Of a stretch of DNA of 64,000 nucleotides, positions 1-60,779 are shown in pieces. This DNA is from Mustelus asterias (Eukaryota): positions 1,426,001 through 1,490,000 of the forward strand of contig NC_135819.1 in NCBI RefSeq assembly GCF_964213995.1. The letters are read 5' to 3'. The notes beneath the pieces are model-generated. The model was not told the DNA's origin. It saw only the letters and a program-made list of their open reading frames with translations, and made no database searches. The position numbers and the translations under genes were made by a program. The first letter of the stretch is position 1; every line of letters begins with the position of its first letter.

Positions 1-46
1 CCAATAATGGATTCCAAATTGCTGTAGGACATAAAGGCGAGTAGAG
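1..46 (-). CDS. ADGRE1-like: ADGRE-like GAIN exon, partial ([16 protein letters not shown])
   Basis: Acceptor cactgccag at 47-48, phase 1. Matches the AVAF(I/V)SY..(L/M)ES(I/V) motif of ADGRE GAIN domains. Confidence 0.8.
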
Positions 47-12000: not shown

Positions 12001-15000
12001 GCCTCTCCAATATCTGAAAAGCCGAGGGGTTCAAAATTCGTTCTGTGCCATTTTTTTTCGCTTTTGGTTGGGTGGGCAGGAATCGCGACTCACAACCGAC
12101 CCACATCCAGTGAAGTGGAGGGAGCCAAGGCACAATATTGACCTTGTTCAACTGATAGTCCCCTCGGGCCAACCTGCTGGCAACATCTGTGCCCAGGAAA
12201 GCATTTGGCATCAGTAGCACCATCTGCGGCGGTACAACAGATCTCAATTCTCCCTCACCCGCACCTCCACAAGATACTAAATGTGTAGAACTGGGAGATA
12301 AAGCAGCTTAAGCATGAACATGGAAAACTCTTACCGACTGGCATTCTGCAGCAGAGTCAAGAGTTCCATTATCCGAAAGACATTTAAAAGGACGATCTGA
12401 AAACACAAACCAGATATTTAACCTCCCAAATTTCCAATGGGTAAGTAATTAGCCATAGTCCCCAATAGAACAGAGGCACCTCGCTCTAATGCAGGATGGA
12501 TGCAATATGGAAAGCACCCTTCCCGGATGTATCACTGCTTGGTCTGGCTCCTGCTCTGTCCAAGGCCGCAAGAAACTACAGAGGGTTGTGAATGTAGTCC
12601 AGTCCATCACGCAAACCAGCCTCCCATCCATTGACTCTGTCTACACTTCCCGCTATCTCGGAAATGCAGCCAACATAATCAAGGACCCCATGCACCCCAG
12701 ACATTCTCTCTTCCACCTTCATCCATCAGGAAAGAGATACAAAAGTCTGAGATCACGTACCAACCGATTCAAGAACAGCTTTTTCCCTGCTGCCATCAGA
12801 CTTTTGAATGGACCTACCTTGCATTAAGTTGATCTTTCTCTACGCCCTAGCTACGACTGTAACACTACATTCTGCTTTCCCTCTCCCCTATGTACTCTAT
12901 GAATGGAATTCTTTTTCTGTATAGCGCGCAAGAAACAATACTTTTCACTGTATCCCAAAACATGTGACAATAATAAATCAAACCAAATCAAATCAAAAAA
13001 AGCTTGAGGGGCATCATTTTGCAATCATGGGGCAAGGCAAGGAGGCTTCCTTGAGCTATCACAGCCGATCCGGGGATTGAACCCATGCCACTGGCATCGT
13101 ACACCAACCACCTGATCCAAACAACACCCAGTTGGTAATGGACATTAAGGAGAACTTTGTTCCTGGGAAAGGAGTATTGTGTACAGTTCTGGGTGCCACA
13201 CTATAGGAACCCCATAGAACCCCACTAAAAATTCCATCGAGTCTGCACCAACTAATTCCAGCCTTGGATCACTGACTGTGTGGAGTGTGCACGTTCTCCC
13301 CGTGTCTGCCTGAGTTTCCATCGGGTGCTCCTGTTTCCTCCCACAGTCCAAAGATGTACTGGTTAGGTGGATTGGCCATGCTAATTTGTCACTTAAAGTC
13401 CAAAGAGGTGCAGGTTAGGTGGATTGGCCACGGTAAATGCACGGGGCTAGGGGGATAGGATGGTAAGGGGGTGGGCCTGGGTAAGATGCTCTTTTGGGGA
13501 GTCGGTGCTGTCGCAATGGGCCGAATGGCACTGTAGGGATTCTATGGATTCAGCAGTGAATTGTGAAATATAGGAAGACAAAGTCAGTCACTGAAAATCA
13601 GATCAATTGTATGAACTCACCGTCCTTAACGCTGAGGATTATATCTTCTTTCTTGTTATTACCTCCGCTATATTCTACCCGGCAGCAGTACGGACCCTCA
13701 TCTCCCATGGTCACATTGTGTATAGTGAGAGAGACGTTACCTCGCTCAATGTCCCCAGACATGCTGTATTTTGTGTTTAAACGATAGATGATATTTTTCC
13801 CATCAGTTTTAAGCAACACTTTGCTGCAGGAAAATGCAGACATATCACAACACCCGTCTTGACCCCAACACATTGCAGCTAAACCATAATAGGTAACGTT
13901 GTAGGTGCAAGGCAGGCTGACCGAGGATCTCAACTTCCCACTGATCTGCAATGCCTCTGCAAAAAGGAATGGAAATTACATTCAGAGTCTGTCATATGGA
14001 GGAGGACATGTTTCCAAAGCAGCTGAATCACAACAACTGAATCAGAACACTTTTAAGATTAGTGTCTGCAGATTTAACCCGAAGAATGTGGAGTTGCAAA
14101 ATTAAGCGGCTGCTGCTGTTGTGGAACAGGGGGGCAGGAGAAAGCCAGTTACCCCCTCAAGCCAATATAGAAAGCATCTTGTCCGGATGTATCACAGCTT
14201 GGTATGGCTCCTGCTCTGAACAAGATCGCAAGAAACTACAAAGGCTTGGGATCGTAGCCCAGTCCATCACGCAAACCAGCCTCCCATCCATTGACTGGGT
14301 CTACACTTCCCGCTGCCTTGGAAAAGCAGCCAGCATAATCAAGGATCCCACGCATCCTGGACATTTTCTCTTCTACCTTTCCCCGTTGGGAAAAAGATAC
14401 AAAAGTCTGAGGTCCTGTACCAACCGACTCGAGAACAGCTTCTTCCCTGCTGCTGTCAGACTTTTGAATGGACCTACCTTGCATTAAGTTGATCTTTCTC
14501 TGCGCCCTAGCGATGGTAAAAGCACGGGGCTAGGGGGATAGGATGGCAAGGGGGTGGGTGTGGGTAAGATGCTCTTTCTGGGAGTCGGTGCTGACTCAAT
14601 GAGCCGAATGGCACTGCAGGGATTCTATGGATTCAGCAGTGAATTGTGAAATATAGGAAGACAAACTCAGTCACTGAAAATCAGATCAATTGCATGAACT
14701 CACCGTCCTTAACGCTGAGGATTATATCTTCTTTCTTGTTATTACCTCCGCTATATTCTACCCAGCAGCAGTACGGACCCTCATCTCCCATGGTCAAATT
14801 GTGTATAGTGAGAGAGACGTCACCTCGCTCAATGTCCCCAGACAAGTTGTATCTTCTTTTCAAATCATACGTGATTTTTTTCCCAACAGTTGCAAACAAC
14901 ACGTTGGAACAGAAAAGTGCAGACATTTCAGAGCACCCGCCTTGACCCCAACACATTGCAGCTAAACCATAATAGGTAACGTTGTAGGTGCAAGGCAGGC

Positions 15001-18000
15001 TGACCGAGGATCTCAACTTCCCACTGATCCGCAATGCCTCTGCAAAAAGGAATGGAAATTACATTCAGAGTCTGTCATATGGAGGAGGACATGTTTCCAA
15101 AGCAGCTGAATCACAACAACTGAATCAGAACACTTTTAAGATTAGTGTCTGCAGATTTAACCCGAAGAATGTGGAGTTGCAAAATTAAGCAGCTGCTGCT
15201 GTTGTGGAACAGGGGGGCAGGAGAAAGCCAGTTACCCCCTCAAGCCAATATAGAAAGCATCTTGTCCGGATGTATCACAGCTTGGTATGGCTCCTGCTCT
15301 GAACAAGATCGCAAGAAACTACAAAGGCTTGGGATCGTAGCCCAGTCCATCAGTCAAACCAGCCTCCCGTCCATTGACTCTGTCTACACTTCCCGCTGCT
15401 TCGGAAAAGCAGCCAGCATAATCAAGGACCCCACGCACCCCGGACATTCTCTCTTCAACCTTCTTCCGTTGGGAAAAAGATACAAAAGTCTGAATGGAGC
15501 TACCTCGCATTAAGTTGATCTTTCTCTACGCCCAAGCTATGACTGTAAGACTACATTCTGCACTCTCTCCTTTCCTTCACCCCTATGTACTCTATGAATG
15601 GTATGCTTTTTCTGTGTAGTGCGCAAGAAACAATACTTTCCACTGTATCCCAAAACATGTGACAATAATAAATCCAATCAAAAAAAGCTTGAGGGGCATC
15701 ATTTTGCAATCATGGGGCAAGGCAAGGAGGCTTCCTTGAGCTATCACAGCCGATCCGAGGATTGAACCCATGCCACTGGCATCGTACACCAGCCAGCTGA
15801 TCCAAACAACACCCAGTTGGACATTCAGGAGAACATAGTTACTGGGAAAGGAGTATTGTGTACAGTTCTGGGTGCCACAGTACAGGATTCCCGTAGAACC
15901 CCATAGAATCCCATAGAATCCTTACAGTGCCCGTCAAGTCTACACTAGCCAGTTCTGGCCTTGTGACTGTCCATGTGGAGTTAGCACATTCTCCCCATGT
16001 CTGCGTGCATTTCCTCCCCGTGCTCCAGTTTCCTCCCACACTCCAATGATGTGCAGGTTAGGTGGATTGACCATGGTAAGTTGTCCCTTAGTGTCCAAAG
16101 ATGTGCAGGTTAGGTGGATTAGCCATGCTAAATTGCCGCTTAGTGTCCAAATATGTGCAGGTTAGGTGAATTGGTCACACTAAGTTGCCCCTAAGTGTCC
16201 AATGAACAAAGAACAAAGAAAATTACAGCACAGGAACAGACCCTTCGGCCCTCCAAGCCTGCACCAACCATGCTGCCCGACTGAACTAAAACCCCTACTC
16301 TTCCGGGGACCATATCCCTCTATTCCCATCCTCTTTATGTATTTGTCCAGATGCCCCTTAAAAGTCACTATAATATCTGCTTCCACTACCTCCCCCGGCA
16401 TGCAAGTTCCAGGCACCCACCACCCTCTGTGTGAAAAACCTGCCTCGCACATCTCCTTTAAACCTTGCCCCTCGCACCTTAAACCTGTGCCCCCGAGTAA
16501 TTGACTCTTCCACCCTGGGAAAAAGCTTCTGACTATCCACTCTGTTCATGCCTCTCATAATCTTGTAGACTTCTATCAGGTCGCCCCTCAACCTCCGTCA
16601 TTCCAGCGAGAACAAACAAAGTTTCTCCAACCTCTCCTCCAAATCTTTTCTGTACCCTCTCCAAAGCCTCCACATTCTTCTGGTAGTGTGGCGACCAGAA
16701 TTGAACACTATATTCCAAGTGCGGCCTAACTTAGGTTCTATAAAGCTGCAACATGACTTGCCAATTTTTAAACTCAATGCCCCGGCCGATGAAGGCTAAC
16801 CGTCTTGACTACCTGATTCACCTGCATTGCCACTTTCAGTGACCTGTGTACCTGTACACCCAGATCCCTCTGCCTATCAATACTCTTAAGGGTTCTGCCA
16901 TTTACTGTATATTTCCCATCTGCATTAATCCTTCCAAAATGCATTACTTCACATTTGTCCGGATTAAACTCCAGCTGCCATCTTTCCTCCCCAAGTCTCC
17001 AACCGATCTATATCCTGCTGTATCCTCTGATGGTCCTCATCGCTTTCCGCAATTTCACCAACATTTGTGTCATCCACAAACTTACTAATCAAATCAATTA
17101 CATTTTCCTCCAAATCATTTATATATATTACAAACAGCAAAGGTCCCAGCGCTGATCCTTGAGGAATGCCACGAGTCGCAGCCCTCCATTCAGAAACACA
17201 CCCTTCCATTACTACCCTCTGTCTTCTATGACCAAGCCAGTCCTGTATCCACCTTGCTAGCTCACCTCTGGCCCATGCGACTTCACCTTCTGCCATGAGG
17301 GACCTTGTTAAAGGATTTACTGAAGTCCATGTAGACAACATCCATTGCCCTACCCTCATCAATCATCTTCGTCACTTCCTCGAAAAACTCGTTCAAGTTA
17401 GTGAGACACGACCTCCCCTTCACAAAACCATGCTGCCTCTCACTAATACGTCCACTTATTTCCAAGTGGGAGTAAATCCTGTCTCGAAGAATCCTGTCCA
17501 ATAATTTCCCTACCACTGATTTAAGGCTCACCAGCCTGTATTTACCTGGATTATCCTTGTTACCCTTCTTAAACAAAGGAACAACATTGGCTATTCTCCA
17601 ATCCTCTGGGACCTCCCCATAGCCAGTGAGGATACAAAGATTTCTCTCAAGGCCCCAGAAATTTCCTTCCGTGCCTCTCTCAGTATTCTGGGGTATATCC
17701 CATCAGACCCTGGGGACTTGTCTACCTTAATGTTTCTCAAGACCCCCAATACCTCTCTTTTTAATCTCAACATGACCCAAACTATCTACACATTCTTCCC
17801 CAGATTCATCATCCACCAAGTCTTTCTCTTCGGTGAATACCAACGCAAAGTATTCATTTAATACCTCGCCCATTTCCTCTGGCTCCACGCATTGATTCCC
17901 TCTCCTGTCCTTGAGTGGACCAGCCCTCTCCCTGGCTATCCTCTTGCTCTTTGTATATGTATAAAAAGCCTTGGGATTTTCCTTAATCCTGCTGGCCGAT

Positions 18001-21000
18001 GACTTTTCATGACCCCTTTTAGCCTTCCTGACTCCTGGCTTAAGCTTCTTTCTACTTTCCTTGTATTCCACACTTGCTTTGTGTGTTCCCAGCCTCCTAG
18101 CTTTGACAAATGCTTCCTTTTTCTTTTTGACTAGGCTCATAATATCTCTCATTATCCAGGGTTCCCGAAACTTGCCATACTTATCCTTCATCCTTACAGG
18201 AATGTGCCGGTCCTGAATTCCTATCAATTTACACTTGAATGCCTCCCACATGCCAGATGTTGGTTTGCTTTCAAACATCTGTCACCAATCTACACTTTCA
18301 GATAAAGCTCGGCACAACATCGTGGGCCGAAGGGCCTGTTCTGTGCTGTACTGTTCTATACATTCTTCAGTTCCTGCCTAATATTGTTGTAATTAGCCTT
18401 CCATCAATTTAGCACCTACACCCGAGGACTACCCTTATCTTTATCCATCAGTACCTTAAAGTTTACTGAATTGTGGCCACTGTTCCCAAACTGCCCCTCT
18501 ACTGAAACGTCGACCACCTGGCCGGGCTCATTCCCCAATACCAGGTCCAGTATGGCCCCTTCTCTAGCTAGACTACTCGACATACTGGATGCTGCTTACA
18601 AACTCTGCCCCAATCACGCCCCAAGTGGATCCCAGTCAATATAGGGGAAGTTAAAATCTCCCACCACAACAACCCTGTTACTTTTATACCTTGCCAAAAT
18701 CTGTTCCTCCATCTCCCGCTGGCTGTTGGGAGGCCTATAATAAACCCCCAACATTGTGACTACACCGTTCCTATTCCTGAGCTCTACCCATTTTGCCTCG
18801 CTGTATGAGCCCTCTGAGGTGTCCTCCCACAGTACAGCTGTTATATTCTCCTTAACCAGTCGTGCAACCCATTTTACTTCCACCTCTATCCCGCCTGAAA
18901 CATCTGTATCCTGGAACATTAAGCTGCCAATCCTGTCCTTCTCTTAACCAAGTCTCTGTAATGGCAAGAGACCTTACTGGACCTACTCTCTAGTTCCCCT
19001 TCAGTTAATTCACCTTTGCTTTGGTTCCCACTCCCCCCACCAAACTATTTAAATCCTCCCATGTGACACTGGCAAACCTCCCGGCCAGAATATTTATGCC
19101 CCTTCAGTTTAGAGGCAAACCGTCCTTTTTGTACAGGTCTCGCCTGCCCCGGAAGAGATCCCAATGGTCCAGATATTAGAAATCCCCTTCTACACCAGCT
19201 GTTTATCCACGTGTTGAGCTGTGTACCTTCCTATTTCTAGCCTCACTGGCACGTGGCACAGGGAGTAATCCTGGGATTACAACCCTAGAGGTCCTGCTTT
19301 TTAGCTTTCTACCTAACTCCCTAAACTGCTGCTGCAGGACCTCATCACTCTTCCTGCCTATGTCGTTAGAACATAAGAACATAAGAAATAGGAGCAGGAG
19401 TAGGCCATCTGGCCCTTCGAGCCTGCCCCGCCATTCAACAAGATCATGGCTGATCTGAAGCGAATCAGTTCCACTTACCCGCCTGCTCCCCATAACCCCT
19501 AATTCCCTTATCGATCAGAAAACTATCTACCCGTGATTTAAACATATTCAACGAGGAAGCCTCCACCACTTCAATGGGCAGAGAATTCCAGAGATTCACT
19601 ACCCTCTGAGAGAAGAAGTTCCCCCTCAACTCTGTTCTGAACCGGCCCCCCCTTATTTTGAGGCTGTGCCCTCTAGTTCTGGTTTCCCTTCTAAGTGGAA
19701 AAAATCTCTCCACCTCTACCCTATCCAGCCCCTTCATTATCTTATATGTCTCTATAATATCACCCCTCATCCTTCTAAACTCCAACGAGTACAGACCCAA
19801 TCTGTTTAATCTCTCCTCATAAGCTACACCCCTCATCTCCGGTATCAACCTGGTGAACCTTCTCTGCACTCCCTCCAAGGCCAATATATCCTTTCGCAAA
19901 TAAGGGGACCAAAACTGCACACAGTACTCCAGTTGCGGCCTCACCAGTGCCTTGTACAGTTGCAGCAAGACCTCCCTGCTTTTATATTCTATCCCCCTCG
20001 CGATAAAGGCCAACATTCCATTCGCCTTCTTGATCACCTGCTGCACCTGCAGACTGAGTTTTTGCGATTCGTGCACAAGGACCCCCAGGTCCCTCTGCAC
20101 AGTCACATGATGTAATTTTTCTCCATTTAAATAATATTCCAATTTACTATTATTTCTTCCAAAGTGGATAACCTCACATTTGCTAACGTTATATTCCATC
20201 TGCCAAATCCTCGCCCACTCGCTCAGCCTATCCAAATCTCTCTGCAGACTTTCTGCGTCCTCCACGCAATTCGCTTTCCCACTCACCTTCGTGTCATCAG
20301 CAAACTTGAATACCCTAGATTCAGTCCCCTCCTCCAGATCATCTATGTAAATGGTAAATGGTTAGTACCAATATGTACCACGACCTCTGGCTGCTCACCC
20401 TCTCCCTTCAGAATGCTTTCTGCCCATTCAGAGATATCCTGGACCCTGGCACCAGGGAGGCAACAGACCACCGTGGAGTCTCTCTCACGTCCACAGAGGT
20501 GTCTGTCTGTACCCCTAACTATAGAGTCCCCTATAACTATTGGTCTGGTGCTCTTTGTCCCTCCCTCCTTAACAACAGAGCCAGCCGTGGTGACACTGCT
20601 CTGGCTGCTGCTGCTGTTATCCCCGATAGGCCATCCACCCCGAACAGTATCCGAAACGGTCTGCTTGTTAGAGAGGGGGACGACCACAGGAGATTCCTGC
20701 ACTGACTGCCTGCCCCTTCTAGCGGTCACCCATCTATCTGCCTGCACCTTGGGTGTGACCACATCACTAAAACTCCTGCCTATGACGCTTTCCGCCACCT
20801 TCATGCTCCTAAGTGCATCCAACTGCCGATTCTTGGAAAAACCCATCCATGCAGTCTGTGAGGAGCTGCAATTGGGTGCACTTCCTGCAGACGGAGTCGT
20901 TCGAGACGCTGGAAGCGTCACGGATCTCCCACATCTCTCAAGTGCAGCAACCTCACTGACTGACATTTCTATCACCAATTCAATTATTTAAGAGCATTTA

Positions 21001-24000
21001 TTAAAAACTCTTACCTTCACTTATCGCTGCAGATACCCAAGGTGGGCCTTTAGATCACTTACCTTCCCAGGATGCTCTCCTTGCAGATTAACAGCTACCA
21101 AGCAAGAAGAAAGAAAACAAAACAAAAAGAGAAAAAGTACCTCCTCCCACACTGCACCGAATTACCACACTGTTTCAAATTACCAAGTTGCAATCCCATT
21201 CTGGCCACCTCACTCAGGCTGCGTCCCACTCACGTGCGCAAAGTTTACTGCTTCTCTCTTATATAGAACTGTTTATTTTTTTTATTTTGGCACTGGCTGG
21301 GCCAGCATTTATTGCCCATCCCTAGTTGCCCTTGGAGGGCAGTTGAGAGCCAACCACATTGCTGTGGCTCTGGAGTCACATGTAGGCCAGACTGGGTAAG
21401 GACGGCAGATTTCCTTCCCTAAAGGACATTAGTGAACCAGATGGGTTTTTCCAACAATCGACAATGGTCATCAGTAAATTCTTAACTTCAGATATTTTTT
21501 TTTGAATTCTAATTCCACCATCCACCACGGGATTCGAACCCAGGACCCCAGAATATTAGCTGAGTTTCTGGATTAATAGAACAAAGAACAAAGAAAATTA
21601 CAGCACAGGAACAGGCTCTTCGGCCCTCCAAGCCTGCACCGACCATGCTGCCCGACTTAACTAAAACCCCTACCCTTCCGGGGACCATATCCCTCTATTC
21701 CAATCCTATTCATGTATTTGTCAAGACGCTCCTTAAAAGTCACTACCGTATCCGCTGCCACTACCTCCCCCAGCAACGAGTTCCAGGCACCCACTACTCT
21801 CTGTGTAAAAAATCTGCCTCGTACATCTCCTTTAAACCTTGTCCCTCGCACCTTAAACCTGTGCCCCCAGTAATTGACTCTTCCACCCTGGGAAAAAGCT
21901 TCTGACTATCCACTCTGTTCATGCCTCTCATAATCTTGTAGACTTCTATCAGGTCGCCCCTCAACCTCCGTCATTCCAGTGAGAACAAACCAAGTTTCTC
22001 TAACCTCTCCTCATAGCTAATGCCCTCCATACCAGGCAACATCCTGGTAAATCTTTTCTGTACCCTCTCCAAAGCCTCCACATCCTTCTGCTAGTGTGGC
22101 GACCAGAATTGAACACTATATTCCAAGTGCGGCCAAACCAAGGTTCTATAAAGCTGCAACATGACTTGCCAATTTTTAAACTCAATGCCCCGGCCGATGA
22201 AAGCAAGCATGCCGTATGCCTTCTTGACTAACTTCTCCACCTGCATTGCCACTTTCAGTGACCTGTGTACCTGTACACCCAGATCCCTTTGCCTATCAAT
22301 ACTCTTAAGGGTTCTGCCATTTACTGTATATTTCCTATTTGTATTAGACCTTCCAGAATGCATTACCTCACATTTGTCCGGATTAAACTCCATCTGCCAT
22401 CTCTCCGCCCAAGTCTCCAACTGATCTATATCCTGCTGTATCCTCTGATGGTCCTCATCGCTATTGGCAAATCCACCAACCTTTGTGTCGTCCGCAAACT
22501 TACTAATCAAATCAGTTACATGTTCCTCCAAAGCATTTATATATGTAAGGGACTGAGGAAAATTTGTGGGGAAGACAGTTACCAGTGTTCTTTGTCCCTG
22601 GTGGGCTTCAGTGTCCTGTTTGCCGGGTGGGTGCTGTGAACAGGATGCTGTTGGTTGAGTGATGTGGGCTGGGCCAATGGGATTGCTCTGGGAGCGGGAG
22701 GAAAGAAAAAGGGCGCCAGGAAGTGAAGCAGGGCAGAGAGAGAGGCAGAGCTGGAGAGGCAGAGCTGGAGAGGCAGAGAGAGAGCTTTTTCCAGGCAGGG
22801 AGAATTCGGTTTGGAGTGAGAGGCAGCCAGGCGTTCCCCTGCCTGTTCTTTTCATTACTGCCGAGGAGGACAGCATTCAGCGCACTCGACCTATGTTGCT
22901 GCACGGATAGCTCGCGGCACCTCTGCCTCCTGCGGCATCATCTTCCACACGTGTGTCTCTCCTGGACTGTGTGTGGGTGTCGTGAGTAACTGGTGGGGAC
23001 TATACAGTCCAACTGGATCAGTATCTACGAATGTGTTACGGAGGATGAGTTTCCCCATATGTGCACCAATGGTTGAAGATCAGAGCTCACTGTTTTATGT
23101 CTGTTAATGATATGTGTTATTAAATTTATTTTTGATATTCCGACTTACAGTACTGACATTTATGGGTAAACAGGGAATTAGCCAAATCAACATCAACCGC
23201 TAGGAATTCGGGATCCTGTTGATTGAATATTTAAATAGTAGCCCCATATAGTGGTCAGCAGGGGGTTACATTTTTGGAGGCACCGCTGGGATCATTCCTG
23301 TTTACCCATAAGGTCAAATACAATTTTTTTTTTGTCAGTCAGTAACAGTTAACCCAGTAATTACAACAGGAAAAGTTTTACAGTGTTAGCAGCTCACTTA
23401 AGACAATGGATTTTTCTCAGGCTGCTGACTGGAGCCGCCAAAAGAATATCAGTCTTTCCCGTGGCATATTACTGAGCAATGTGCCAATAGATACTAGTGA
23501 GGAGACCATTGCTAGGGTCTTAAACACAGTGAAAGTCTTTGGTCGCACCAAGATTTGTGGTCGCCGTGGGGATTCTACTGGCACACAGTTGTTCATACTA
23601 GTGGAGACTAGCATTGATTTAACCCCTGACACTGTACCTCCAGATGTAGGTATTGAAGGAGAAGCTGGGCCATGGGCTGTGCATACGCTAGAAAGCCTTG
23701 TCACACAGGATGCTGTTCCTGAAGAGGACGTTTCCATCCAAAGCCGTTGTTACTACTACAACAGGAAGGCAAGTCGATGGAGGATTTTCAGGCCATAGTA
23801 TCAGAAAATCAAGCTCCCAAAGTGGATGTGAACATGGATTTAGTGACTGCTATTGGCAAACTGGTGGACAAGTGCAACCAAGTGTCTACCGATGGGCCTA
23901 GCTACAGAAAGCTGGGACTGTTTTCAGGACTGAAACCTGTACCCCCAGGTGAGGAAGAATACGATGCCTGGATGGAGCAGGCTACCCAGATGATGAATGA

Positions 24001-27000
24001 GTGGCAATGCACTGACGCCGCCAAGAGACAGCGTATAGTGGAGAGTTTAAAAGGGCCTGCTGCTGACATCGTTCGATTTTTGAAAGTTAGCACTCCCACT
24101 GCTACGGCCACCAATTATTTATCTGCTCTGGACACAGCTTATGGCACCACAGAGAGTGGAGCCGACATCTTGGCCAAGTTCAGACACACATACCAGGATG
24201 AAGGAGAAAACCTCTCTGCTTTTCTATATCGCCTTGACAAACTTCTCCATCGTGCTCTTCTTAAGGGAGGAATTACGGCTGCAGACATGAATCGAGCTCG
24301 GGTGGAACAGCTAGTCAAGGGTGCACTCACTCGAGACATGGTTGCTCTGCGTGTAAGGATGAGCCACACCCCGGACAAACCCCCTTCCTTCTTCCAGCTG
24401 ATGCGGGAGGTAAGAGAGGAAGAAAATTGGATTAGCGCCAGAGAAGGGGTGAAAGCTACTGCCACCGCAGCCCCCGCCAGTGTACCGCAGTCCTCAGTTA
24501 CGTCTGAGTTGAACAGCCTACGAAATGAGGTAAGGGAACTGACTTCTCAGGTGGTCAGACTGTTGAGCGCCGTTCCAGTTACCCCCACATCTGAAAGTAC
24601 GACAGCAAGGACTGGGTCCGTACAGCAAGCGCCAGAAGCTGCTGTTCGGGACGCGTCGCCCCGAGTGAAAATGTCCAAACCACTGCCAGCAGGAATCTTT
24701 TGCTACAGGTGTGGGCAAGATGGGCATACAAGGAGAGAGTGCAAAGAACTCGAGGATCTGAGGAAAGTGAATCAGAAGCTGATCAAAGCAAGCAGACAGC
24801 AGGGAAACTTCTCAGGAGCCATGTGAAGGAACGGTGCTTGGTTCCGTGTGAAATACGTTCCACCCACTGTCCACCCCCAGCGAAGCAAGGCTCAAAACAG
24901 TTACCTGCAGGATTAGTGGGGCCATCTCTGGTGTACCTGTGCAAATAGAAGGAGTTTATGCAAGAGCTTTGCTTGACAGTGGCTCCCAAGTAACCATTTT
25001 GTATCGCAACTTCTACGACACCTACCTGAAACACTTACCTCTCCAGCCACTTGAAGACCTGGAAATGTGGGGTTTAAGCTCTCACCAATACCCATATGAT
25101 GGCTACCTGTCCATACAACTCGAGTTCACTGCCACTGTAACCGGAGTGCCGCAGACAGTTGACACTTTGGCCTTAGTATGTCCTGACCCTGTGAAAGATA
25201 ACAACATTGCCGTGCTGGTGGGGACAAATACCCGGCTGGTGAGAGAGTTGGTGGAGTCCTGTAAAGAACAGGCGGGGGAACGCTTCTTGGGTACTTTGAC
25301 CATACACCCCGTCCTCCGGGAAGCTTATGAGACACTCACCCAGTCTGAAACAACAGAAGAGGTAGACAAGCATGGTACTGTGTGGTTTACCCAGCACAAG
25401 CCAATCACCTTGCAACCAGGACAAGTGTTTAAAGTCACTGGCCTCCCAAAGTTTCCTGGTGATTTCACAGACCAGCTAGCACTGATAGATCAGCCTATTG
25501 ATACTTTTTCCCCTGAAGAGTTGTGGGTGAGGCCTGAGGTTCATCTTGCATCAGTTGTTTCCAGCAGACGCATTACTGTGACTGTGAAGAACCTGTCATC
25601 CAGAGAAATCTCCTTGAAACGTGGGACTCCAGTAGCCCATATTTTTCCAGTAGCCCCTGTTTCTCTGCCGAGGATAAAGCTGCAATCGAACTGACCCCTT
25701 CCTCTTTTGATTTTGGAGCCTCTCCTATGCCAGAGGAGGCAAGGAGGTGTCTCTGTGAGAGAATGATGGAGAGGAAAGAGGTTTTCTCTCAGCACGAGTG
25801 GGATGTAGGTTGTTCTAAAAGTACCAGACATGAAATAAGACTGAAGGATGCAAGGCCCTTCCGAGAGAGGTCACGTCGCTTGTCGCCTGCTGACTTTGAG
25901 GATGTGCGCCAGCACCTACAGGAACTACAAAGCCATGGCATCATCTCTGAATCGCGTAGTCCCTACGCATCGCCAATAGTAGTCGTACGCAAGAAGTCAG
26001 GGAAGGTACGAATGTGCGTGGACTACCGAACCCTTAACCTTCGAACAATACCGGACCAGTACACTGTCCCAAGGATAGAAGACGCTCTTCACTGCTTGTC
26101 TGGGAGTAAATGGTTCACAGTCCTCGACCTGAAGAGCGGGTACTATCAAATACCCATGAGTGAGGCTGACAAGGAGAAGACCACTTTTATCTGCCCGTTG
26201 GGTTTTTATCAGTTCGAACGCATGCCTCAGGGAATTTCCGGAGCACCGGCCACTTTTCAGAGAGTCATGGAACATACTGTCGGCGACATGAACTTTCTGG
26301 AGGTGTTGGTGTACCTGGATGATCTCATTGTGTTTGGACGAACCCTCGAAGAACACGGGCGGCACGGTAGCACAGTGGTTAGCACTGCTGCTTCACAGCT
26401 CCAGGGACCTGGGTTCGATTCCCGGCTTGGGTCACTGTCTGTGTGGAGTTTGCACATTCTCCTCGTGTCTGCGTGGGTTTCCTCCGGGTGCTCCGGTTTC
26501 CTCCCACAGTCCAAAGATGTGCGGGTTAGGTTGATTGGCCATGCTAAAAATTGCCCTTAGTGTCCTGAGATGCGTAGGTTAGAGGGAATAGTGGGTAAAT
26601 ATGTAGGGATATGGGGGTAGGGCCTGGGTGGGATTGTGGTCGGTGCAGACTCGATGGGCCGAATGGCCTCTTTCTGTACTGTAGGGTTTCTATGATTTCT
26701 ATGATTTTCTATGAACACGAGGAGCGGTTGCTCAAAGTGCTTGACCGGCTCCAAGAAGAAGGTCTGAAGCTGTCGCTTGACAAGTGCCAGTTTGGCAGGA
26801 CTTCTGTCACCTACGTTGGACATGTAGTGTCGCAGGACGGAATAGCGACGGACCCATCCAAGGTAGAGGCTGTTGTCTCCTGGCCAAGACCCCAAACGGT
26901 GACAGAGCTCAGATCCTTCCTTGGATTTTGTGGCTACTATCGCCGCTTTGTCAAGGACTTCTCCAAACTCTGCCGTCCCCTCAACGGACTTCTTCAAGGA

Positions 27001-30000
27001 TATCCTCTCCGTCCCCGCTCCAAGGGGAGTCAGACTGCAAACTCACCTGACAAGACTTACTTCAAGCCTTCTGAACCCTTTGGCTCTCGGTGGAGTGAGC
27101 AATGCGAACATGCTTTCCAAGGACTCAAGACCCGGCTCACCAGAGCCCCTGTATTGGCATTCGCAGATCCACAGAGGCCTTACATTCTGCACGTGGATGC
27201 TAGCCTGGACGGACTAGGTGGTGTCTTATACCAAGAGCATGATGATGGTCTACGCCCAGTTGCATTCATCAGCAGAAGTCTCTCGCCATCTGAGAAAAAC
27301 TATCCAGCACACAAACTGGAGTTTTTAGCTCTCAAGTGGGCTATTGTGGATAAGCTACATGACTATCTTTACGGAGCTACTGTACAAGTCAGAACGGACA
27401 ACAATCCCCTGACCTACGTCACAACATCAGCTAAACTGGATGCCACTGGTCATCGTTGGCTCTCAGCACTGTCCACCTACAACTTTAGCCTTAAGTATAG
27501 ACCAGGCCGGCATAACCTTGACGCAAACTCGTTGTCTCGACGTCCACATGACAGCATGACACCAGATGATGAATGGCAAGAAATCCCAGTTCCAGGAGTG
27601 CGGGCTCTCTGTCAGACTGTGTCAAGTAGCACACGAGCAGGACACTCCTATCCATGTGTGATCGAACAAATAGGGGCTCATGTGTCTGCAGTTCCCAAGG
27701 CTTTCTGTCATACCGTTGCAGTAGTAGCTGATCAGCTGCCCACTTTCAGTCCAGCAGAGCTTCAAGCCGCTCAGAAAAGCGACCCGTGTATAGGAGAAAT
27801 ATGGCTGGCTGTCAATCAGAAGGCACCAGCAAGTCAAATACAGACAAACCATCCTGATCTTACACTTCTGAAACGAGAGTGGGGAAGTAGTCAATCGAGC
27901 AGGGTCTGCTTTACAGGACAGTCAAACAGTCTGACCTACGCTACGGCGACAGCTTGTGCTCCCCAAGCAGTTCCACCGTATGATTCTGAAGTCACTGCAT
28001 GGCAACAATGGACATCTGGGATTTGACAAGACCTATGTACTCGTCTGTGACAGATTCTTCTGGCCCCGCATGAAGCTAGACGTAGAGACATACTGCAAGA
28101 CATGTGAACGCTGCATTAAGAGAAAGACTCTGCCACAGAGAGCAGCACCACTTTCCCACATCCAAAGTTCAGGCCCTATGGATCTTGTCTGCATTGACTT
28201 TCTCTCCATAGAACCTGATTCCCGCAATGTGTGCAATGTGTTGGCACAAGCATTCCCAACCAAGGATCAGAGAGCCATAACGGTTGCCAGAACTCTATGG
28301 GAGAAATACTTCATTCACTACGGCCTACCAACTCGCATACATTCAGACCAGGGTCGGGATTTTGAAAGCCAGTTGGTGACAGAGATGTTGACCATGTTGG
28401 GTGTGAGGAAATCAAGAACTTCACCATACCACCCACAAGGTGACCCTCAACCAGAGAGGTTCAATAGAACCCTGTTGAACATGCTAGGAACTCTTGAGCC
28501 CAGTCAAAAGTCCAAGTGGAGTCAGCACATTGCACATCTGGTCCACGTGTACAACTGTACCCCAAATGAAGCTACCGGGTATTCGCCCTACTTTTTAATG
28601 TTCGGGAGGGAAGCCAGACTTCCTGTGGACATCTGCTTTGGCGTATCAGCGGATGGGACCTCAACAACTTCCCACTTGCAGTATGTGTCTAAGATGAAGA
28701 AAGAGCTGCAAGCAGCCTATCAGTTGGCCCAAGCCACTTCCGCTAAAATGAACCAAAGTAACAAGGAGAGGTATGACCAGAGAGTGCGCTACCATTGCTT
28801 GAAGCCTGGGGATAGAGTCCTCATTCGAAACCTTGGCCTGAAAGGGAAACAGAAGCTTGCTGATCGGTGGAGTGCAAATCCTTATGTGGTTGAGAGTCAA
28901 ATGTCTGATCTTCCTGTTTATCGTCTAAAGCCTGCAGATGGTTCGGGACCCATTAAGGTCATGCACCGAAATCATATTTTGCCCCTGGGACAAGAGGTCC
29001 AATTGAGCAGTGAGGTTGACTCAAAGCCTACTCCCTCTCCAAGAGCCCTCAGGCACAGAAAAGCAAAAGAAAGGAATCAAACTCCTGAGGTTCACAAAGA
29101 TGACTCCGCAGCTGATGTGCCCCTGGGAGATCAAAACTCTTCAGACTCAGAGTCAGAGTATGGACATTACCCAGAGGACTTGATCATTGACAATCCTGAG
29201 GAAATCTGTGAACAACCGGAACAGGATGTCATGCCTACAGAGTCCAATCCCCCCACAAATGCTACAGAAGTGACAGAAGTCGCAGCGAGCTCAGAATCTT
29301 CAGAAGGGCTACCTGTTGTGATAGAAGAGGTAGTAACTGAGCAAAGGGAAGTAGAATCAGACAGTTCTGTTGAGGGCACTTACACTACAGACACATCTAA
29401 CATAGCCAATCCAGAACCAGAGATAAGGAGATCACAGAGAGAGAGAAAGCCAGCAGACCGTTTCCATTATACAAAGCTGGGAGAGCCGTGTGCAAAGTCT
29501 GTAGTAGTAGGACATACAAGTGTTCACTCAGCTACGCCACCCACTAGGCATTTTCCTGAACACTGCAATAGTTGTCATACATGGTGGTGTAACTCCTTTG
29601 CTCAGTGCTCGTCATGTATAAATAAGGTACCACTCTTTTCACCCACTATTATAGCAGTCATCACACGATAAGGTACATGGTGTAATTGGTTAACTGGGTC
29701 CTATGTCATGTACTTCAGCATGGGGGCATGCTGTATTTTTGGTGGGGGGAGAATGTAAGGGACTGAGGAAAATTTGTGGGGAAGACAGTTACCAGTGTTC
29801 TTTGTCCCTGGTGGGCTTCAGTGTCCTGTTTGCCGGGTGGGTGCTGTGAACAGGATGCTGTTGGTTGAGTCATGTGGGCTAGGCCAATGGGATTGCTCTG
29901 GGGGCGGGAGGAAAGAAAAAGGGCGCCAGGAAGTGAAGCAGTGCAGAGAGAGAGGCAGAGCTGGAGAGGCAGAGCTGGAGAGGCAGAGAGAGAGCTTTTT

Positions 30001-33000
30001 CCAGGCAGGGAGAATTCGGTTTGGAGTGAGAGGCAGCCAGGCGTTCCCCTGCCTGTTCTTTTCATTACTGCCAAGGAGGACAGCATTCAGCGCACTCGAC
30101 CTACGTTGCTGCAAGGATAGCTCGCAGCACCTCTGCCTCCTGCGGCATCATCTTCCACACGTGTGTCTCTCCTGGACTGTGTGTGGGTGTCGTGAGTAAC
30201 TGGTGGGGACTATACAGTCCAACTGGATCAGTATCTACGAATGTGTTACGGAGGATGAGTTTCCCCATATGTGCACCAACGGTTGAAGATCAGAGCTCAC
30301 TGTTTTATGTCTGTTAATGATATGTGTTATTAAATTTATTTTTGATATTCCGACTTACAGTACTGACATTTATGGGTAAACAGGGAATTAGCCAAATCAA
30401 CATCAACCGCTAGGAATTCGGGATCCTGTTGATTGAATATTTAAATAGTAGCCCCATATAGTGGTCAGCAGGGGGTTACATATATATTACAAATATTATA
30501 ATAGCCTAGCAGTAAGACCACTAGGCCGTCACCTCCCCAACTCAACTGGGCTGAGATGACTCACACACCAGTTAGGCTTCAAACAGAAGAATGTAACTTA
30601 CAACGTTTGCTTCTAATCAGGCTTCAGGTGATTGACAGATAACCGCCACTCAGCTATTTGGGTGGGGGTAGTTCCTTTTTACCAACTAACTAGGCCACTA
30701 AACTTATAACTGAAAAAAACCCAGGAAAATTAGATTTATCACATAGCTCTTCAAATACCATCCTGCTCCAAATTACCAAATTTCAATCCCACTCTGGCAG
30801 TCTCACGCATGTGCGCAATGCTTACCAGTGATGTGCAGGTTGGGTGGATTAGCCATGGTAAATGTATGGGGTTAGAGGGATAGGGTGGCAAGGGTGTGGG
30901 CCTGGGTAAGATGCTCTTTCGGGGAGTTGGTGCAGATTCAATGGGCTGAATGGCCTCCTTCTGCACTGTAGGAATTCTGTAAAGTTAAAGTTTATTTATT
31001 AGTCACAAGTAGGCTGACATTAACACTGCAATGAAGTTACTGTGAAAATTCCTTAGTCGCCACAGTCTGGTGCCTGTTTGGGTCAATGCACCTAACCAGC
31101 ACGTCTTTCAGACTGTGAGAGGAAACCGGAGCACCCGGAGGAAACCCACGCAGACACTGGGAAAACGTGCAAACTCCGCACAGACAGTGATCCAAGCCAA
31201 GAATCGAGCCCAGGTCCCTGGCGCTGTGAAGCAACAGTGCTAACCATTGTTCTATCATGCCACCTCCTTGGTTTACCAGTGATGTGCAGGTTAGGTGGAT
31301 TAGCCATGGTAAATGCATGGGGTTAGAGGGATAGGGTGGCAAGGGGGTGGGTGTGGGTAAGATGCCTTTTCGGGGAGTTGGTGCTGACTCAATGGGCCGA
31401 ATGGCACTATCGGGATTCCATGTATTCAGCAGTGAATTGTGAAATATAGGAAGACAAATTCAGTCATAGGTCATCAGATCACTGCGTGAACTCACCCGGC
31501 TTAACGCTGAGGATTACATCTTCTTTCTTGTCATTGAACGGTCCGCTATATTCTACCCGGCAGCAGTACGGACCCTCATCTCCCATGGTCAAATTGTGTA
31601 TCGTGAGAGAGACGTCACCTCGCTCAATGTCCCCAGCCAAGTTGTATTTTGTGTTAACACGCGAGATGATACTTTTCCCATCAGTTTTAAGCAACTCGTT
31701 GCTACAGGAATATGCAGACATTTGAGAGCACCGGTCTCGAACCCAACACATTTCAGTTAAACCATAATAGGCAACGTTGTAGGTGCAAGGCAGGGTGACC
31801 AAGGATCTTAACTTCCCACTGATCCGCAATGCCTCTGCAAAAAGGAATGGAAATTACATTCAGAGTCTGTCATATGGAGGAGGACGTGTTTCCAAAGCAG
31901 CTGAATCACAACTGAATCAGAACACTTTTAAGATTAGTGTCTGCAGATTCAACCCAAAGAATGTGGAGGTGCAAAATTAAGCGGCCTCTGCTGTTGTGGA
32001 ACAGCGGGGACAGGAGAAACCCAGTTACCCCCCCTCAAGCCAATTCCACCAGTCCATGAAATCTTGGCTGAGCTTCAACCTAATTGCAAGGCCTCACCTT
32101 AACCTCATATCCCTTTGGTTAACGAAAAGCTATCAATCAATCCCCTAGTTAGAGGGGAGTTTTCCCCTCCCGCCCGCCACGGGAATCGTATCAGGTGGGA
32201 CAAAATCCCGCCCTTGCACCAATTGCCATTTGCATTCAAGAGTTCCAAACCTCGACATAGAAACATAGAAACTAGAAGCAGGCCCTTCGCGCCTGCTATG
32301 TCATTCATTTTGATCATGACTAATCATCCAATTCAATATCCTGATCCCGCCTTCTCCACATATCCCTTGATCCCTTCAGCCACAAGAGCTGTGGCCGGGA
32401 TTCTCCCAAAATAATTCTAAGTCCCCAGTGTGCAGAAAAAAGGGAGTAAACCCTGATTTTTTTTAGCATGATTTCCAAAAAGAATCTTCGCCACTCTGTG
32501 CATCACAGAATGCCTCAGCGGGATTCCCTCTGGAAATTTGTGGGCAATGCCTATTCCCACCCGGGAGGCTGGCACCATAGGGCTGAATGGAATATTGCGC
32601 ATGCGCCGATCTGTCAGTGCGAAGATTGACTCATGCACGGTGACCCTACATTGCCGGCCTCCCAATCACTGGCCAACCCTGCAACCGTCCCATCGCTGGC
32701 CTCCCCGACCTCCACCAGGCAGCCGCGATCTCCCCACCCCCTCGGGCAGACCCGATCTCCCGATCCCACCACCCCCCCGACAGTCCCGACCCTCCAGCAG
32801 CCCTGACCCACTCTCCATACCCGATCACCTCTTTCCACGCTCTCCCAGTCATCCCAATGCAGAAAGGCAATGGATCCCCCCATCCCCACCAATTGCCCCC
32901 CCCCATTAGGCCCTGCCCCCCAATAGGCCCTGCGCCCTCTGGCCCCACCCCCTTTGGCACTGCCAGTTTGCCCCTTGGGCAATGCCAGGGGCCAGGCTGG

Positions 33001-36000
33001 CACTGCCCAGAGAGCACCCCCCCTAACCTTCGACCTCCTGGGGGGGCCTCAATGGCCTCTCTTCCCTCCAGCGGAATAACCCCCTACATCTAATTCCTTC
33101 TTGAAATCACGCAACGTTTTGGCCTCAACCACTTTCTGTGGGAGTGAATTCCACACATTCGCCACTCTCTGGGTGAAGAAATTTCTCCTCACTTCAGTCC
33201 CACAAGGTTCTGGACTGCCCCGCCATCGGGAACAATTTTTATGTCAGGAGTGCTTCCAAATTTCACTCCTGAAAAGTGTGCCTCTAATCTTTTGACTCTA
33301 CCTCCTGATCCTAGACTCCTCCAACCAGCAGAAATAGTTTCTCTCTTTGTACACTGTCTGTTCCTTTTAATATCTTATTTAAGACTTAGATTAAATCTTC
33401 TAAATTCTGGCAAATGCAACCCTAACCTCCCCTGGTGGTGTAACAACAGGAGTCCAGCTCTCATTCTGGTAAATCGACATTGCACTTCCCCCTGGACCAT
33501 ATCCTTCCGAAAACTGCCCTCACTACTCTAGGTGTGGTCTATACTGTCACCACAGGCCCAGAGGCCCATGGGCTGCTCTCCCCTTTGAGGTGGTGAGAGC
33601 TGACTGGTGGTGATTTAACCTGAGGGTCACCACACCTCAGGCAGGGGGGGGGGGGGGGGGGGCAAGGTTGAGAAGGCCTTTATGGATAATCTCAGCCGGT
33701 ATGGGAATTGAACCCACGCTGTTGGTGTCATACTGCATCACTAACCAGCCATCCAGCCAACTGAGCTAACTGACCCCCAGGTATGGTCTAACCAGGGTTT
33801 TGTATAGTTGAAGCATGACCGCTACCTTGTATGTTTTTTTTTACTTGATTTGTAGGATGTGGGCATCACTGGATGGTTTCAAGCTTCTTGAGTGTTGTTG
33901 GAGCTTCACGTATCCAGGCATGTGGCGAGCATTCCATCACACTCCTGCCTTGTGGGCAGCACGGTGGCACAGTGGTCAGTGCTGTTGCCTTACAGTGCCA
34001 GAGACCTGGGTTCAATTCCCAGCCTCAGGTCACTGTCTATGCGGAGTCTGCACATTCTCCCCATGTCTGCGTGGGTTTCCTCCGGGTGCTCCAGTTTCCT
34101 CCCACAGTCCAAAGACGTGCTGGTTAGGGTGCATTGGCAATGCTAAATTCTCCCTCAGTGTACCCGAACAGGCGCCAGAGTGTGGCGACTAGGGGATTTT
34201 CACAGTAACTTCATTGCAGTGTTAATATAAGCCTACTTGTGGCACTAATAAATAAACCTAAACTTTAGATGGTGGACAGGCTTTGGGGAGTCCAGAAGTA
34301 ATTCAAAAAAGGCTTTTGCTTGCAGAGAATAGGTCCCTGTGTATGAATGTCTGTCACTCCAAGCAAATATAAACGAATCATGTTACAAGCTGGTTATTTT
34401 AAACTCAGGACTGTTCAGCAAGTGCTGCCTCATCATGAAATCATATCTAACAGTAGACCTTTTGGAGCACACCGTTGTATCCGTCCTGATTGAGTGCAGG
34501 GTGAAAAGTATCACCAACTTGTCTTTCTCTTCATCAATATGTATATGCATTTCACTGGAGGAACTACTCGGCTTTTGTGTGGAGACTTTTGCTGCAGTTC
34601 ACAGAGAATCTCTTTGAGTACACTGTTATAGTATAGTTATTTAAACAGCCTCCTGTTTGCCAAGTAAATGAACTGGTTTGCCGTAGTGCTCTGTGAGTCC
34701 CTCGGTAATCCCACCTTACCTCTGACCCACCGGCTGCCATGGTGGTGTCAATAGGCACTCTGATGAAGGCTCAGTGAGTTGTACAATGCCTGAGAATGTG
34801 GGTGAGGCCGATTCAAGTGTGGCGTTCAAATGGGAATTGGTTAAGTACTTGACATGGTAGAACAATATTGCAAGGCTGTGTGGGAGAGGGCGGGGGAATG
34901 GGGCGAGTTAAATTGTTCTTGCAGAGGGCTAGCACAGGAATAATGGCTGAATGGCCTCTTTGCTGTAACTATTCTATAAGTCTTTGAATTCTAAATGGGC
35001 ATGGAATTTTTTTTTTATTCATTCGTGAATGCTGGCCAGCATTTATTGCCCATCCCTAGTTGCCCCTTGAGAAGGTGGTGGTGAGCTGCCTTCTTGAATC
35101 GCTGCAGTCCGCGTGCTGTGGGTTGACCCACAATGCCATTAGGGAGGGAATTCCAGGATTTTGACCCAGCGACTGCAAAGGATCGGCGATATATTTCCAA
35201 GTCAGGATGGTGAGTGGCTTGGAGGGGAACTTGCAGGTGGTGGTGTCCCATGTATCTGCTGCCCTTGTCCTTCTAGATGGAAGTGATCGTGGGTTTGGTG
35301 CTGTCTAAGGATCTTTGGTGAATTGCTGCAGTGCATCTTGTAGATGGTACACACTGCTGCTACTGGGCGTCGGTGGTGGAGAGAGCAGGTGCTTGTGGAT
35401 GTGGTGCCAATCTAGCGGGGCTGCTTTGTCCTGGATGGTGTCGAGCTTCTTGAGTGTTGTTGGAGCTGCACCCATCCAGGCAAGTGGGGAGTATTCCATC
35501 ACACTCCTGACTTGTGCCTTGTCGATCTCCCTCGCTCTTTGTTAATTTAAAATACATACACAATATATCTGCCTTATTGAAAATTCTTGGTTACTAGGAA
35601 AGATTACCGGTATGAATTGGCTAATACACAGCAGATTGTGGAGTTATATTTATTGTTACAAGGTTGAGTATAATTGAGGAGTTGACTTAGGTAGATTGGC
35701 CGTGCTAAATTCTTTCTCAGTGTACCTGAACAGGCGCCGGAGTGTGGCGACTGGGGAATTTTCACAGTAACTTCATTGCAGTACTAATATAAGCCTACTT
35801 GTGACTAATAAATAATAAATAAATACAAATGCTTCATAACTTACCGGATTGGTGAATGTTTTGATTCCAAATGATCCAATGAAAAACAGCTAGGAAACAA
35901 AAAATTGTGATTCGCTTAGATTACGTGCAAACAGTTTTTTTTTGGAAATACATCAAGGCCAGGGTTTTCCCGCCCTTCACACCGGCTGGATCTTCCAGTC

Positions 36001-59127: not shown

Positions 59128-59758
59128 ATTATTTTTATTCTGAGCATTCCACTTTCCACAGCTAGACTTCAAGCAAGTCTCAGTCCGGTGTGGGTTTGGT
59201 TGTCATTAACTCAGTTTTGTATTGCATTGGATCTTATGATAGTTGAAGCATTGGAGGGTTTTCAACGTCTTCTGTTGTGCCAGCTCTTTGCATGAGGAAT
59301 TTGGTTAGTCCCACTTCTCCACCTATTTTTCATAGCTTGCAACTTTTCTTCGTATCTCCAGATGTTATCCAATTCTCTTTTGAAGGCTGTGGTGAACCAT
59401 CGTTGGTTCCCACTGGATAGTACTGAGCCAGGGTCTGGCCAGTACTACAAGTATGTACATATGTTACTGTTGGGTTAGGGATGGGTTGTGCTACTTGTTG
59501 CTGTTGGGGTTAGGGTGGGGTTGTTACACCTTTGTATGATAGTGTTGTGGTACATCCCAGTCGGGCTCCGCCTCCTGGGAGAGGTATAAAGGTCCCTGCT
59601 CTGGCCGGGACCCCTTCAGTCTGGGATCGTGTATATAATTGATAGCTGCCTTGTTACAGCAAATAAAAGCCTTTATTTCCTGAGCATCAAGCCTCGTGTA
59701 TGATAACGCGCATCAATTTTATTTGCTCTAAATAAACTCTCGACAAAAAAAAGAGAGT

Positions 59759-60772: not shown

Positions 60773-60779
60773 ACCAACG

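Follow-up and report, generated by a model that had tools for sequence, protein, structure and literature searches.

The closest described relatives of the gene analysed here are TIM-1, TIM-3 and TIM-4 (HAVCR1, HAVCR2 and TIMD4) and the ADGRE1-5 group of adhesion G-protein-coupled receptors, or GPCRs (EMR1-4 and CD97, the EGF-TM7 receptors). The gene lies on the minus strand of a 64,000-nt stretch of the Mustelus asterias genome (RefSeq assembly GCF_964213995.1, contig NC_135819.1, positions 1,426,001 to 1,490,000; below, "the window", with coordinates counted from its first letter) and joins parts of both families. Like the TIM proteins, its product has six-Cys immunoglobulin variable (IgV) domains of TIM fold, each encoded by a phase 1-1 exon, and the first of these has the Gly-x-x-Asn-Asp residues of the FG loop that would form a site for Ca2+ and phosphatidylserine (PS). 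Unlike them, it lacks a mucin stalk, a single transmembrane (TM) segment and a TIM tail, continues into a GAIN domain and a seven-transmembrane (7TM) region, is encoded on a different contig from the TIM cluster, and has Pro in place of the Trp of the FG loop. With the ADGRE receptors it shares the GPS sequence HL/SSFAVLM (slash, cleavage point), a 7tm_2 domain, nesting on the E1-E4 side of the tree, a location in an ADGRE cluster, and tandem N-terminal modules that vary between predicted splice forms, as splicing varies the EGF domains of E2 and E5 (PMC8584163; here and below, cited papers are drawn on in excerpt). These modules, however, are TIM IgV domains, and EGF domains are absent.

Other described systems resemble the gene in part. 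BAI1 (ADGRB1) and GPR56 (ADGRG1) are adhesion GPCRs reported to bind PS (PMC13197933), GPR56 in a splice-form-dependent manner, and the fusion is predicted to do likewise; BAI1 uses TSRs and GPR56 its GAIN domain rather than a TIM IgV, and both belong to other subfamilies. Two tandem TIM IgVs occur in chicken TIM4L, where they arose by exon duplication and are alternatively spliced (PMC4913284), and in multi-IgV TIM-like proteins of amphibians, reptiles and fish, some copies of which lack the Asn-Asp (ND) pair, but all of these are single-pass proteins without GAIN or 7TM. Engineered TIM-4 chimeric engulfment receptors also place a TIM PS domain on a foreign signalling part and are disabled by WFND mutants (PMC9720250), but they are artificial and have TLR-type tails, whereas the Mustelus fusion is natural and a GPCR. 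No description of a TIM-ADGRE fusion was found in the literature outside subscription journals and supplements. Term look-up in excerpts of PMC13197933, PMC8584163, PMC11788884, PMC8455134 and PMC4302439 returned no such fusion, although their supplementary ortholog or domain-pair tables could list the genes, and excerpts of the vertebrate adhesion GPCR survey (PMC8584163) gave 0 matches for shark, chondrichthy or cartilaginous. The fusion proteins do sit in RefSeq, under a generic name.

TIM-type IgV exons in an ADGRE-type receptor gene

Six-frame translation and splice-site reading identified three TIM-type IgV exons on the minus strand, all of symmetric phase 1-1 with AG/GT ends: D1 (31496..31834, 339 nt; six Cys, motif CCR), D2 (14704..15039, 336 nt; six Cys, CCW) and D3 (13621..13956, 336 nt; seven Cys, CCR). 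The interval 13621..31834, singled out in a first-pass annotation of the window, is bounded by the outer ends of the D3 and D1 exons. All three domains score 45-50 bits against Pfam V-set (cut-off 26) and have in common the six Cys of TIMs, at positions 17, 30, 36, 44, 91 and 92. The best PDB sequence matches of D1 are TIM-1, TIM-4, TIM-3 and TIM-2 (E 1e-25 to 1e-18, against 1e-7 for the next family), and a DNA search of the genome for the IgV units returned these three copies (at least three). The seventh Cys of D3, at codon 37 (13846-13848) in the CC' loop, is unpaired and may be available for a disulfide between chains or for an alternative one.

When longer proteins were searched, one of 100 candidates matched, an 840-residue RefSeq "adhesion GPCR E3-like" of Mustelus asterias. 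RefSeq holds three isoforms (P0001-P0003), namely X1 with D1, D2 and D3 (953 aa), X2 with D2 and D3 (840 aa) and X3 with D1 alone (729 aa), and all three map to the minus strand of the window at 100% identity from D1 onward. D1 is the N-terminal, membrane-distal domain of these models, and the exons run in the order signal peptide, IgVs, two short stalk exons, GAIN exons, GPS, 7TM and tail. The Pfam scan of isoform X1 (P0003) returned three V-set domains followed by GAIN (2e-8), GPS (1e-12) and 7tm_2 (1e-52), the domain set of an adhesion GPCR, and the GAIN/GPS/7TM part finds ADGRL3, ADGRE1 and CD97 in the PDB. The cleavage motif and Stachel sequence, HL/SSFAVLM, are intact at residues 621-629 of that isoform, and cleavage is predicted from the motif. 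No EGF domain of the EGF-TM7 kind was found in the scan of P0003 or in the window. The region after D3 is no mucin stalk, its first 60 residues having a Ser/Thr/Pro fraction of 0.17 as against 0.42-0.60 in five TIMs, and GAIN, GPS and 7tm_2 stand where a TIM would have its single TM segment and cytoplasmic tail.

The locus has ADGRE-like genes to either side, with EGF-like exons near those paralogues, while the true TIM cluster of the genome, with five IgV copies, is on another contig (C16). Because the models join the IgVs to GAIN, GPS and 7TM with no mucin region and the TIM cluster lies elsewhere, this is not a TIM gene. The possibility of a TIM gene with three IgVs was rejected, the exons being the N-terminus of an adhesion GPCR with neither mucin nor a single TM segment, and with it falls the TIM-protein frame implicit in the first-pass annotation. 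Judged by GAIN, GPS, 7TM and its place in the tree, the host gene is classed as an adhesion GPCR of the ADGRE lineage, and the fusion of TIM IgV to ADGRE is almost certainly real.

The putative Ca2+ and PS pocket

In human TIM-3 (hTIM-3), two main-chain oxygens (Ile114 and Gly116) and two side chains (Asn119 and Asp120) bind Ca2+ (PMC6269442). D1 has Tyr96, Gly98, Asn101 and Asp102 (domain numbering) at the same spacing, with all four ligand positions kept. Translation bore out the FG loops of the first-pass annotation, SGPFNDKK in D1 (31524-31547, minus strand) and SGGNNKK in D2 (14732-14752) and D3 (13649-13669, both minus strand). The latter are one residue shorter, without the aromatic residue and the Asp; CCG TTC of D1 corresponds to GGT, and GAC to AAC (Asp to Asn), the preceding Asn being kept. 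The change of CCR to CCW in D2 was also confirmed and is a CpG transition, CGG to TGG (Arg to Trp). At the sequence level, the Ca2+/PS-site residues of the TIM FG loop are thus present in D1, and in D2 and D3 the Asp is absent and the loop shortened. The comparison with the WFND motif holds for the Asn-Asp pair of D1 but not in full, since D1 reads PFND, with Pro for Trp, and D2 and D3 lose the Asp and not the Asn.

In human TIM-1, substitutions of N114 and D115 lower PS-dependent function (PMC9611583). Ca2+ binding by hTIM-3 does not require the Trp: its loop, I-M-N-D, has none, and PS binding has been reported for it (PMC6269442). A set of 222 distinct TIM-like F-G segments was chosen by pattern from stored proteins, so that some may be non-TIM; ND is present in 183, following GWF in 84, GLF in 41 and GPF in 23. 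The G-P-F-N-D of D1 is therefore a common natural form of the loop (23/183). Among the fused domains of all species (see below) ND is kept in 12 of 16, including all seven single-domain receptors with a complete IgV, and Trp occurs in 0 of 16. ND is missing from four domains: D2 and D3 of Mustelus, the distal copy in Scyliorhinus canicula and a Chiloscyllium fragment.

The proximal copy of S. canicula retains SGPFND although the distal copy lacks the motif, and in the sawfish Pristis all three copies keep ND. Position therefore does not decide which copies retain the pocket, and the view that distal domains bind while inner copies act as spacers was rejected as a rule. The narrower suggestion that the outer Mustelus domain may bind PS has fared better. 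The four Ca2+-ligand positions are kept and orthologues conserve the pocket, which makes it plausible, and in our view probable, that D1 binds PS, though its affinity could be low given the Pro in place of Trp and a longer CC' loop. The two inner domains have probably lost PS binding. The difference between D1 and D2/D3 is real but ordinary on its own, because multi-IgV TIM-like proteins often lose ND in one copy; it is the fusion, rather than the motif difference, that is the interesting part.

Several frog proteins (P0006-P0011 and P0050-P0052, some named "polymeric immunoglobulin receptor-like") have four or five tandem TIM IgVs, and in several of them it is the first domain that lacks the FND motif, the opposite order to Mustelus. 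The Mustelus TIM cluster (G000:C16:61.40-61.56 Mb; L004-L009) has no Trp in any of its five FG loops; one copy has CCC and GLFNA, with the Asp lost, one is frameshifted, and one seemingly lacks its 5' part.

Fold and divergence of the inner domains

The structure prediction proposed in the first-pass annotation gave a confident model of D2 (pLDDT 92.5, 81 sequences) that superposes on TIM-1 with a TM-score of 0.90 and a root-mean-square deviation of 1.3 A, and the top Foldseek matches of the IgV are TIM-1, TIM-2, TIM-3 and TIM-4 (TM 0.85-0.92), as expected of a TIM fold. The AlphaFold model of full-length isoform X3 (9 sequences) is unreliable outside the IgV and was used for the D1 fold alone; this part also matches TIMs.

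The duplication took in intron flanks, which are 87-99.5% identical. D2 and D3 have diverged mainly in the CC'-C'' region, and D2 has the most changed C'-C'' stretch. Pairwise dN/dS values are 0.159/0.065 for D1-D2, 0.115/0.090 for D1-D3 and 0.103/0.051 for D2-D3, and amino-acid-changing sites have changed more than the flanking intron (p 0.01 and 0.001-0.004). Between D2 and D3, 25 of the 29 differences fall within 100 nt, from CC' to C''D (0 of 20,000 shuffles), and the upstream intron has a single differing site in 204 nt. These data favour a remodelled ligand face in D2/D3, as far as substitution patterns can indicate one, over a plain spacer. The earlier suggestion of new ligands for the inner copies likewise receives modest support from the concentration of amino-acid-changing differences in the C-C'-C'' region.

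Occurrence in other species and origin

The same layout, IgV followed by GAIN/GPS with or without 7TM, is found in gene models of 11 elasmobranch species, retrieved in three protein searches of NCBI and UniRef. Besides Mustelus these are S. canicula, S. torazame, Cetorhinus, Heterodontus and Rhincodon (one search, 7 of 42 matches), together with Pristis, Heptranchias, Carcharodon, Pristiophorus and Chiloscyllium punctatum (partial). We take these species to span galeomorph and squalomorph sharks and one batoid. Among the best 120 of 197 matches, V-set was present in 11, all elasmobranch, with no holocephalan or bony-fish fusion, an absence that carries little weight. The two carpet sharks, Rhincodon and Chiloscyllium, have a Thr-rich insert after the IgV.

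Trees place each half of the fusion. In an IgV tree of 63 domains and 105 columns, from which the partial Chiloscyllium domain was excluded, all 15 fused domains fall in a single clade (99/93), which is joined to eight shark TIM domains (98/85) inside the vertebrate TIMs. The GPS-7TM tree, built from 29 selected rows, groups seven fusions as a single clade (100/100) that lies within ADGRE, towards E1-E4, and sets ADGRL apart in a clade of its own (100/100). The tandem IgV copies cluster by species or genus, arguing for separate duplications in Mustelus (three copies), S. canicula (two) and Pristis (three). The TIM IgV exons of contig C16 are likewise of phase 1-1. A comparison of signal peptides gave mean scores of 19.9 for ADGRE and 17.7 for TIM, which does not tell the two origins apart. 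We infer both the event and the direction of transfer: a single TIM IgV exon would have been shuffled into an ADGRE gene, replacing EGF exons, before the ray-shark split.

Possible transcript evidence

A search of sequencing runs listed no RNA run with the gene. Runs X20 and X21 represent one sample, with run type and tissue not recorded, and may underlie the RefSeq models. They include D1-like contigs as well as contigs identical to parts of D2 and of D3 (0 differences). In run X1, from another organism, there is a D2-like contig with 14 differences from D2 in 264 nt, as against 28 for D3. Runs X20, X21 and X1 have no cover on the unique intron flanks, where run X18 has cover, and several contigs leave the genomic sequence exactly at the D3 acceptor; together these observations are a weak hint of spliced RNA. 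One further contig of runs X20/X21 (records 20 and 27), lying over 13794-13956, has 23 differences and two gap letters relative to D3. It fits neither D1 (19 differences expected) nor D2 (15), and may come from a diverged allele of D1 or from a fourth copy that the assembly lacks.

A model for the receptor and its alternatives

The reading that we favour, with a probability of about 0.6, is that of a fused ADGRE-class receptor in which D1 would bind PS via Ca2+ and the two younger copies could not. In D1, Ca2+ would be coordinated by two main-chain oxygens (Tyr96 and Gly98) and two side chains (Asn101 and Asp102), and the domain would attach to PS on dying cells, on vesicles or on enveloped particles. 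A pull on the N-terminal fragment of the receptor would next uncover the tethered agonist SSFAVLM, which would activate the 7TM and lead to G-protein signalling; GPS cleavage and tethered-agonist activation are established adhesion GPCR biology (PMC13197933). D2 and D3 would extend the arm, and their remodelled CC'-C'' face would probably serve to bind proteins. Arm length and the sight of PS would both be set by exon skipping, isoforms X1 and X3 being PS-binding and X2 PS-blind. Because X2 omits D1 and X3 omits D2 and D3, the isoforms fit optional modules better than fixed spacers.

Several points weigh against this reading. Binding, cleavage and signalling are so far predicted functions. D1 has Pro for Trp, and its CC' loop exceeds that of most TIMs by three residues. 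ND is missing from the Chiloscyllium fragment, and D2 and D3 are still Asn-Asn, so that the effect of the Asp to Asn change is presumed. The full-length model is poor (mean pLDDT 45.8). The excess of dN over dS is weak (Fisher p 0.03-0.07 for D1-D2, 0.22 for D2-D3), and gene conversion can account for the D2-D3 patch, to which it may contribute because all synonymous differences sit there. Among the joints listed for the run contigs, beyond which there are 79 further joints, none involves D1, D2 or D3, and for this reason isoforms X1-X3 remain RefSeq predictions. Four orthologue models (S. canicula, Rhincodon, Heptranchias and Chiloscyllium) end within or before the 7TM, which may reflect annotation gaps or decay, and the GPS His is absent in Pristis and Rhincodon. 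The proteins P0053 (Pristis), P0015 (Rhincodon) and P0197 (Chiloscyllium) have SL/SSF or VL/SSF at the GPS and, lacking the catalytic His, may be uncleaved.

Some of this evidence could also be read as pointing to a different ligand. The fusion would be real, but its Ca2+ pocket would serve mainly a protein or glycan, PS binding being weak or incidental, on the model of TIM-3 with CEACAM1 and of ADGRE EGF domains with CD55 and dermatan sulfate. The IgV of hTIM-3 takes CEACAM1 on the same face (PMC6269442), which also counts against the favoured reading, and the ADGRE ligands tabulated in excerpts of PMC13197933 are proteins and glycans. The absence of Trp from all 16 fused domains, the longer Mustelus CC' loop and the concentration of changes on the CC'-C'' face point the same way. 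However, ND and the preceding Gly are kept in rays and sharks while their neighbours vary, Trp is missing from the TIM IgVs of this genome too (GLFND, GFFND), and hTIM-3 without it is reported to bind PS; we consider a primary protein or glycan ligand unlikely.

Another explanation departs from the favoured one only in the role of D2 and D3, which would be recent, neutrally decaying duplicates, mostly spliced out or mere spacers, beside a D1 that is a working PS sensor. It would explain the high identity of the duplicated intron flanks and the omission of D2 and D3 from isoform X3, and dN/dS near or above 1 can mean relaxed constraint; over the 222 IgV segments, moreover, loss of the Arg and loss of ND co-occur (171/14/12/25, kinship ignored). 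Decay fits poorly, however, with open frames, splice sites and all six Cys retained in both copies, with the confident D2 fold, with the crowding of 25 of 29 differences into 100 nt and the excess of amino-acid-changing over intron change (p 0.001-0.004), and with the D2-like contig of another organism in run X1, and is quite unlikely. The fusion itself would disappear if annotation had misjoined the IgV exons of a separate TIM-like gene to the ADGRE gene downstream of them. Databases do contain fused TIM models (such as P0030 and P0079), and the run-contig joints listed include none of an IgV exon. Nevertheless, an identical join recurs in 11 species, each half yields a single fusion clade in its own tree, no mucin, TM or TIM tail lies between D3 and GAIN, and the window offers the downstream GAIN neither another N-terminus nor an EGF exon, all of which makes a misjoined gene highly improbable.

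Adhesion GPCRs signal but are mostly orphans. If the reading of a PS-binding D1 on an ADGRE-class receptor is true, this lineage-wide fusion would give an ADGRE-type receptor a predictable ligand and would add to BAI1 and GPR56 a third, independent way for adhesion GPCRs to sense PS. TIM-4, by comparison, is described as a tether that needs partner receptors for signalling (PMC8224564, PMC7408610). More tentatively, the gene may represent an undescribed class of elasmobranch receptor, a natural TIM-GPCR chimera that would detect the PS of dying cells and couple it directly to G-protein signalling. Its TIM module has undergone repeated duplication, and in Mustelus splicing would toggle between PS-binding forms and PS-blind forms with new ligands. 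The locus would also be a clear example from cartilaginous fish of an exon shuffled from one immune gene family into another, and D1, D2 and D3 are a natural mutant series for the pocket.

Gene structure and other features of the window

All exons of the gene are on the minus strand, and the introns examined within the window are GT-AG with compatible phases. Coding exon 1 (48350..48380) carries the ATG and the first 10 signal-peptide codons, ends in a GT donor of phase 1 and matches the N-terminus of P0001-P0003; coding exon 2 (35845..35889, phase 1-1) supplies the remaining signal peptide. Downstream of the IgV exons are a short, Cys-containing stalk exon that is not mucin-like (12335..12396, phase 1-0), a second stalk or GAIN-entry exon (7087..7179, phase 0-0), the exon for the helical part of GAIN (4106..4283; Pfam and model match), another GAIN exon (2193..2312; model match and splice reading) and the start of a further one (1..49), from which the gene runs on to the left. 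It extends ~30 kb past that edge of the window (G000:C19, to ~1,395,660) with GPS, 7TM and tail.

The 3' exons (isoform X1 residues 704-953, protein-identical) but not the 5' part are contained in an inverted duplicate of ~40 kb (G000:C19 ~1,377,000-1,418,100 versus 1,321,400-1,360,900; L021-L025 versus L027-L030 and L036) that is 96-99.7% identical. The second copy lies downstream of a plus-strand ADGRE paralogue and may be a recent segmental duplication or a retained haplotype.

A Pro-Thr-His-rich open reading frame at 37053-38306 was considered as a mucin exon and rejected, being a 16-bp tandem repeat that is not in the models. Tandem repeats occupy 37353-38158 and 8007-9000, and there are several 52-bp arrays; the 16-bp array mimics mucin through its Pro-Thr-His frames. 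The D1-D2 intron holds a Ty3/Gypsy-like long terminal repeat (LTR) retroelement (23361-29671, plus strand) disrupted by insertions, stops and frameshifts; its repeats, at 22543-23271 and 29753-30481, are 729 nt long and 98.8% identical. A second such element, at 59732-63101 on the minus strand, is interrupted in the same ways. It too is Ty3/Gypsy-like, and the gag of the element at 23361-29671 is PNMA-like.

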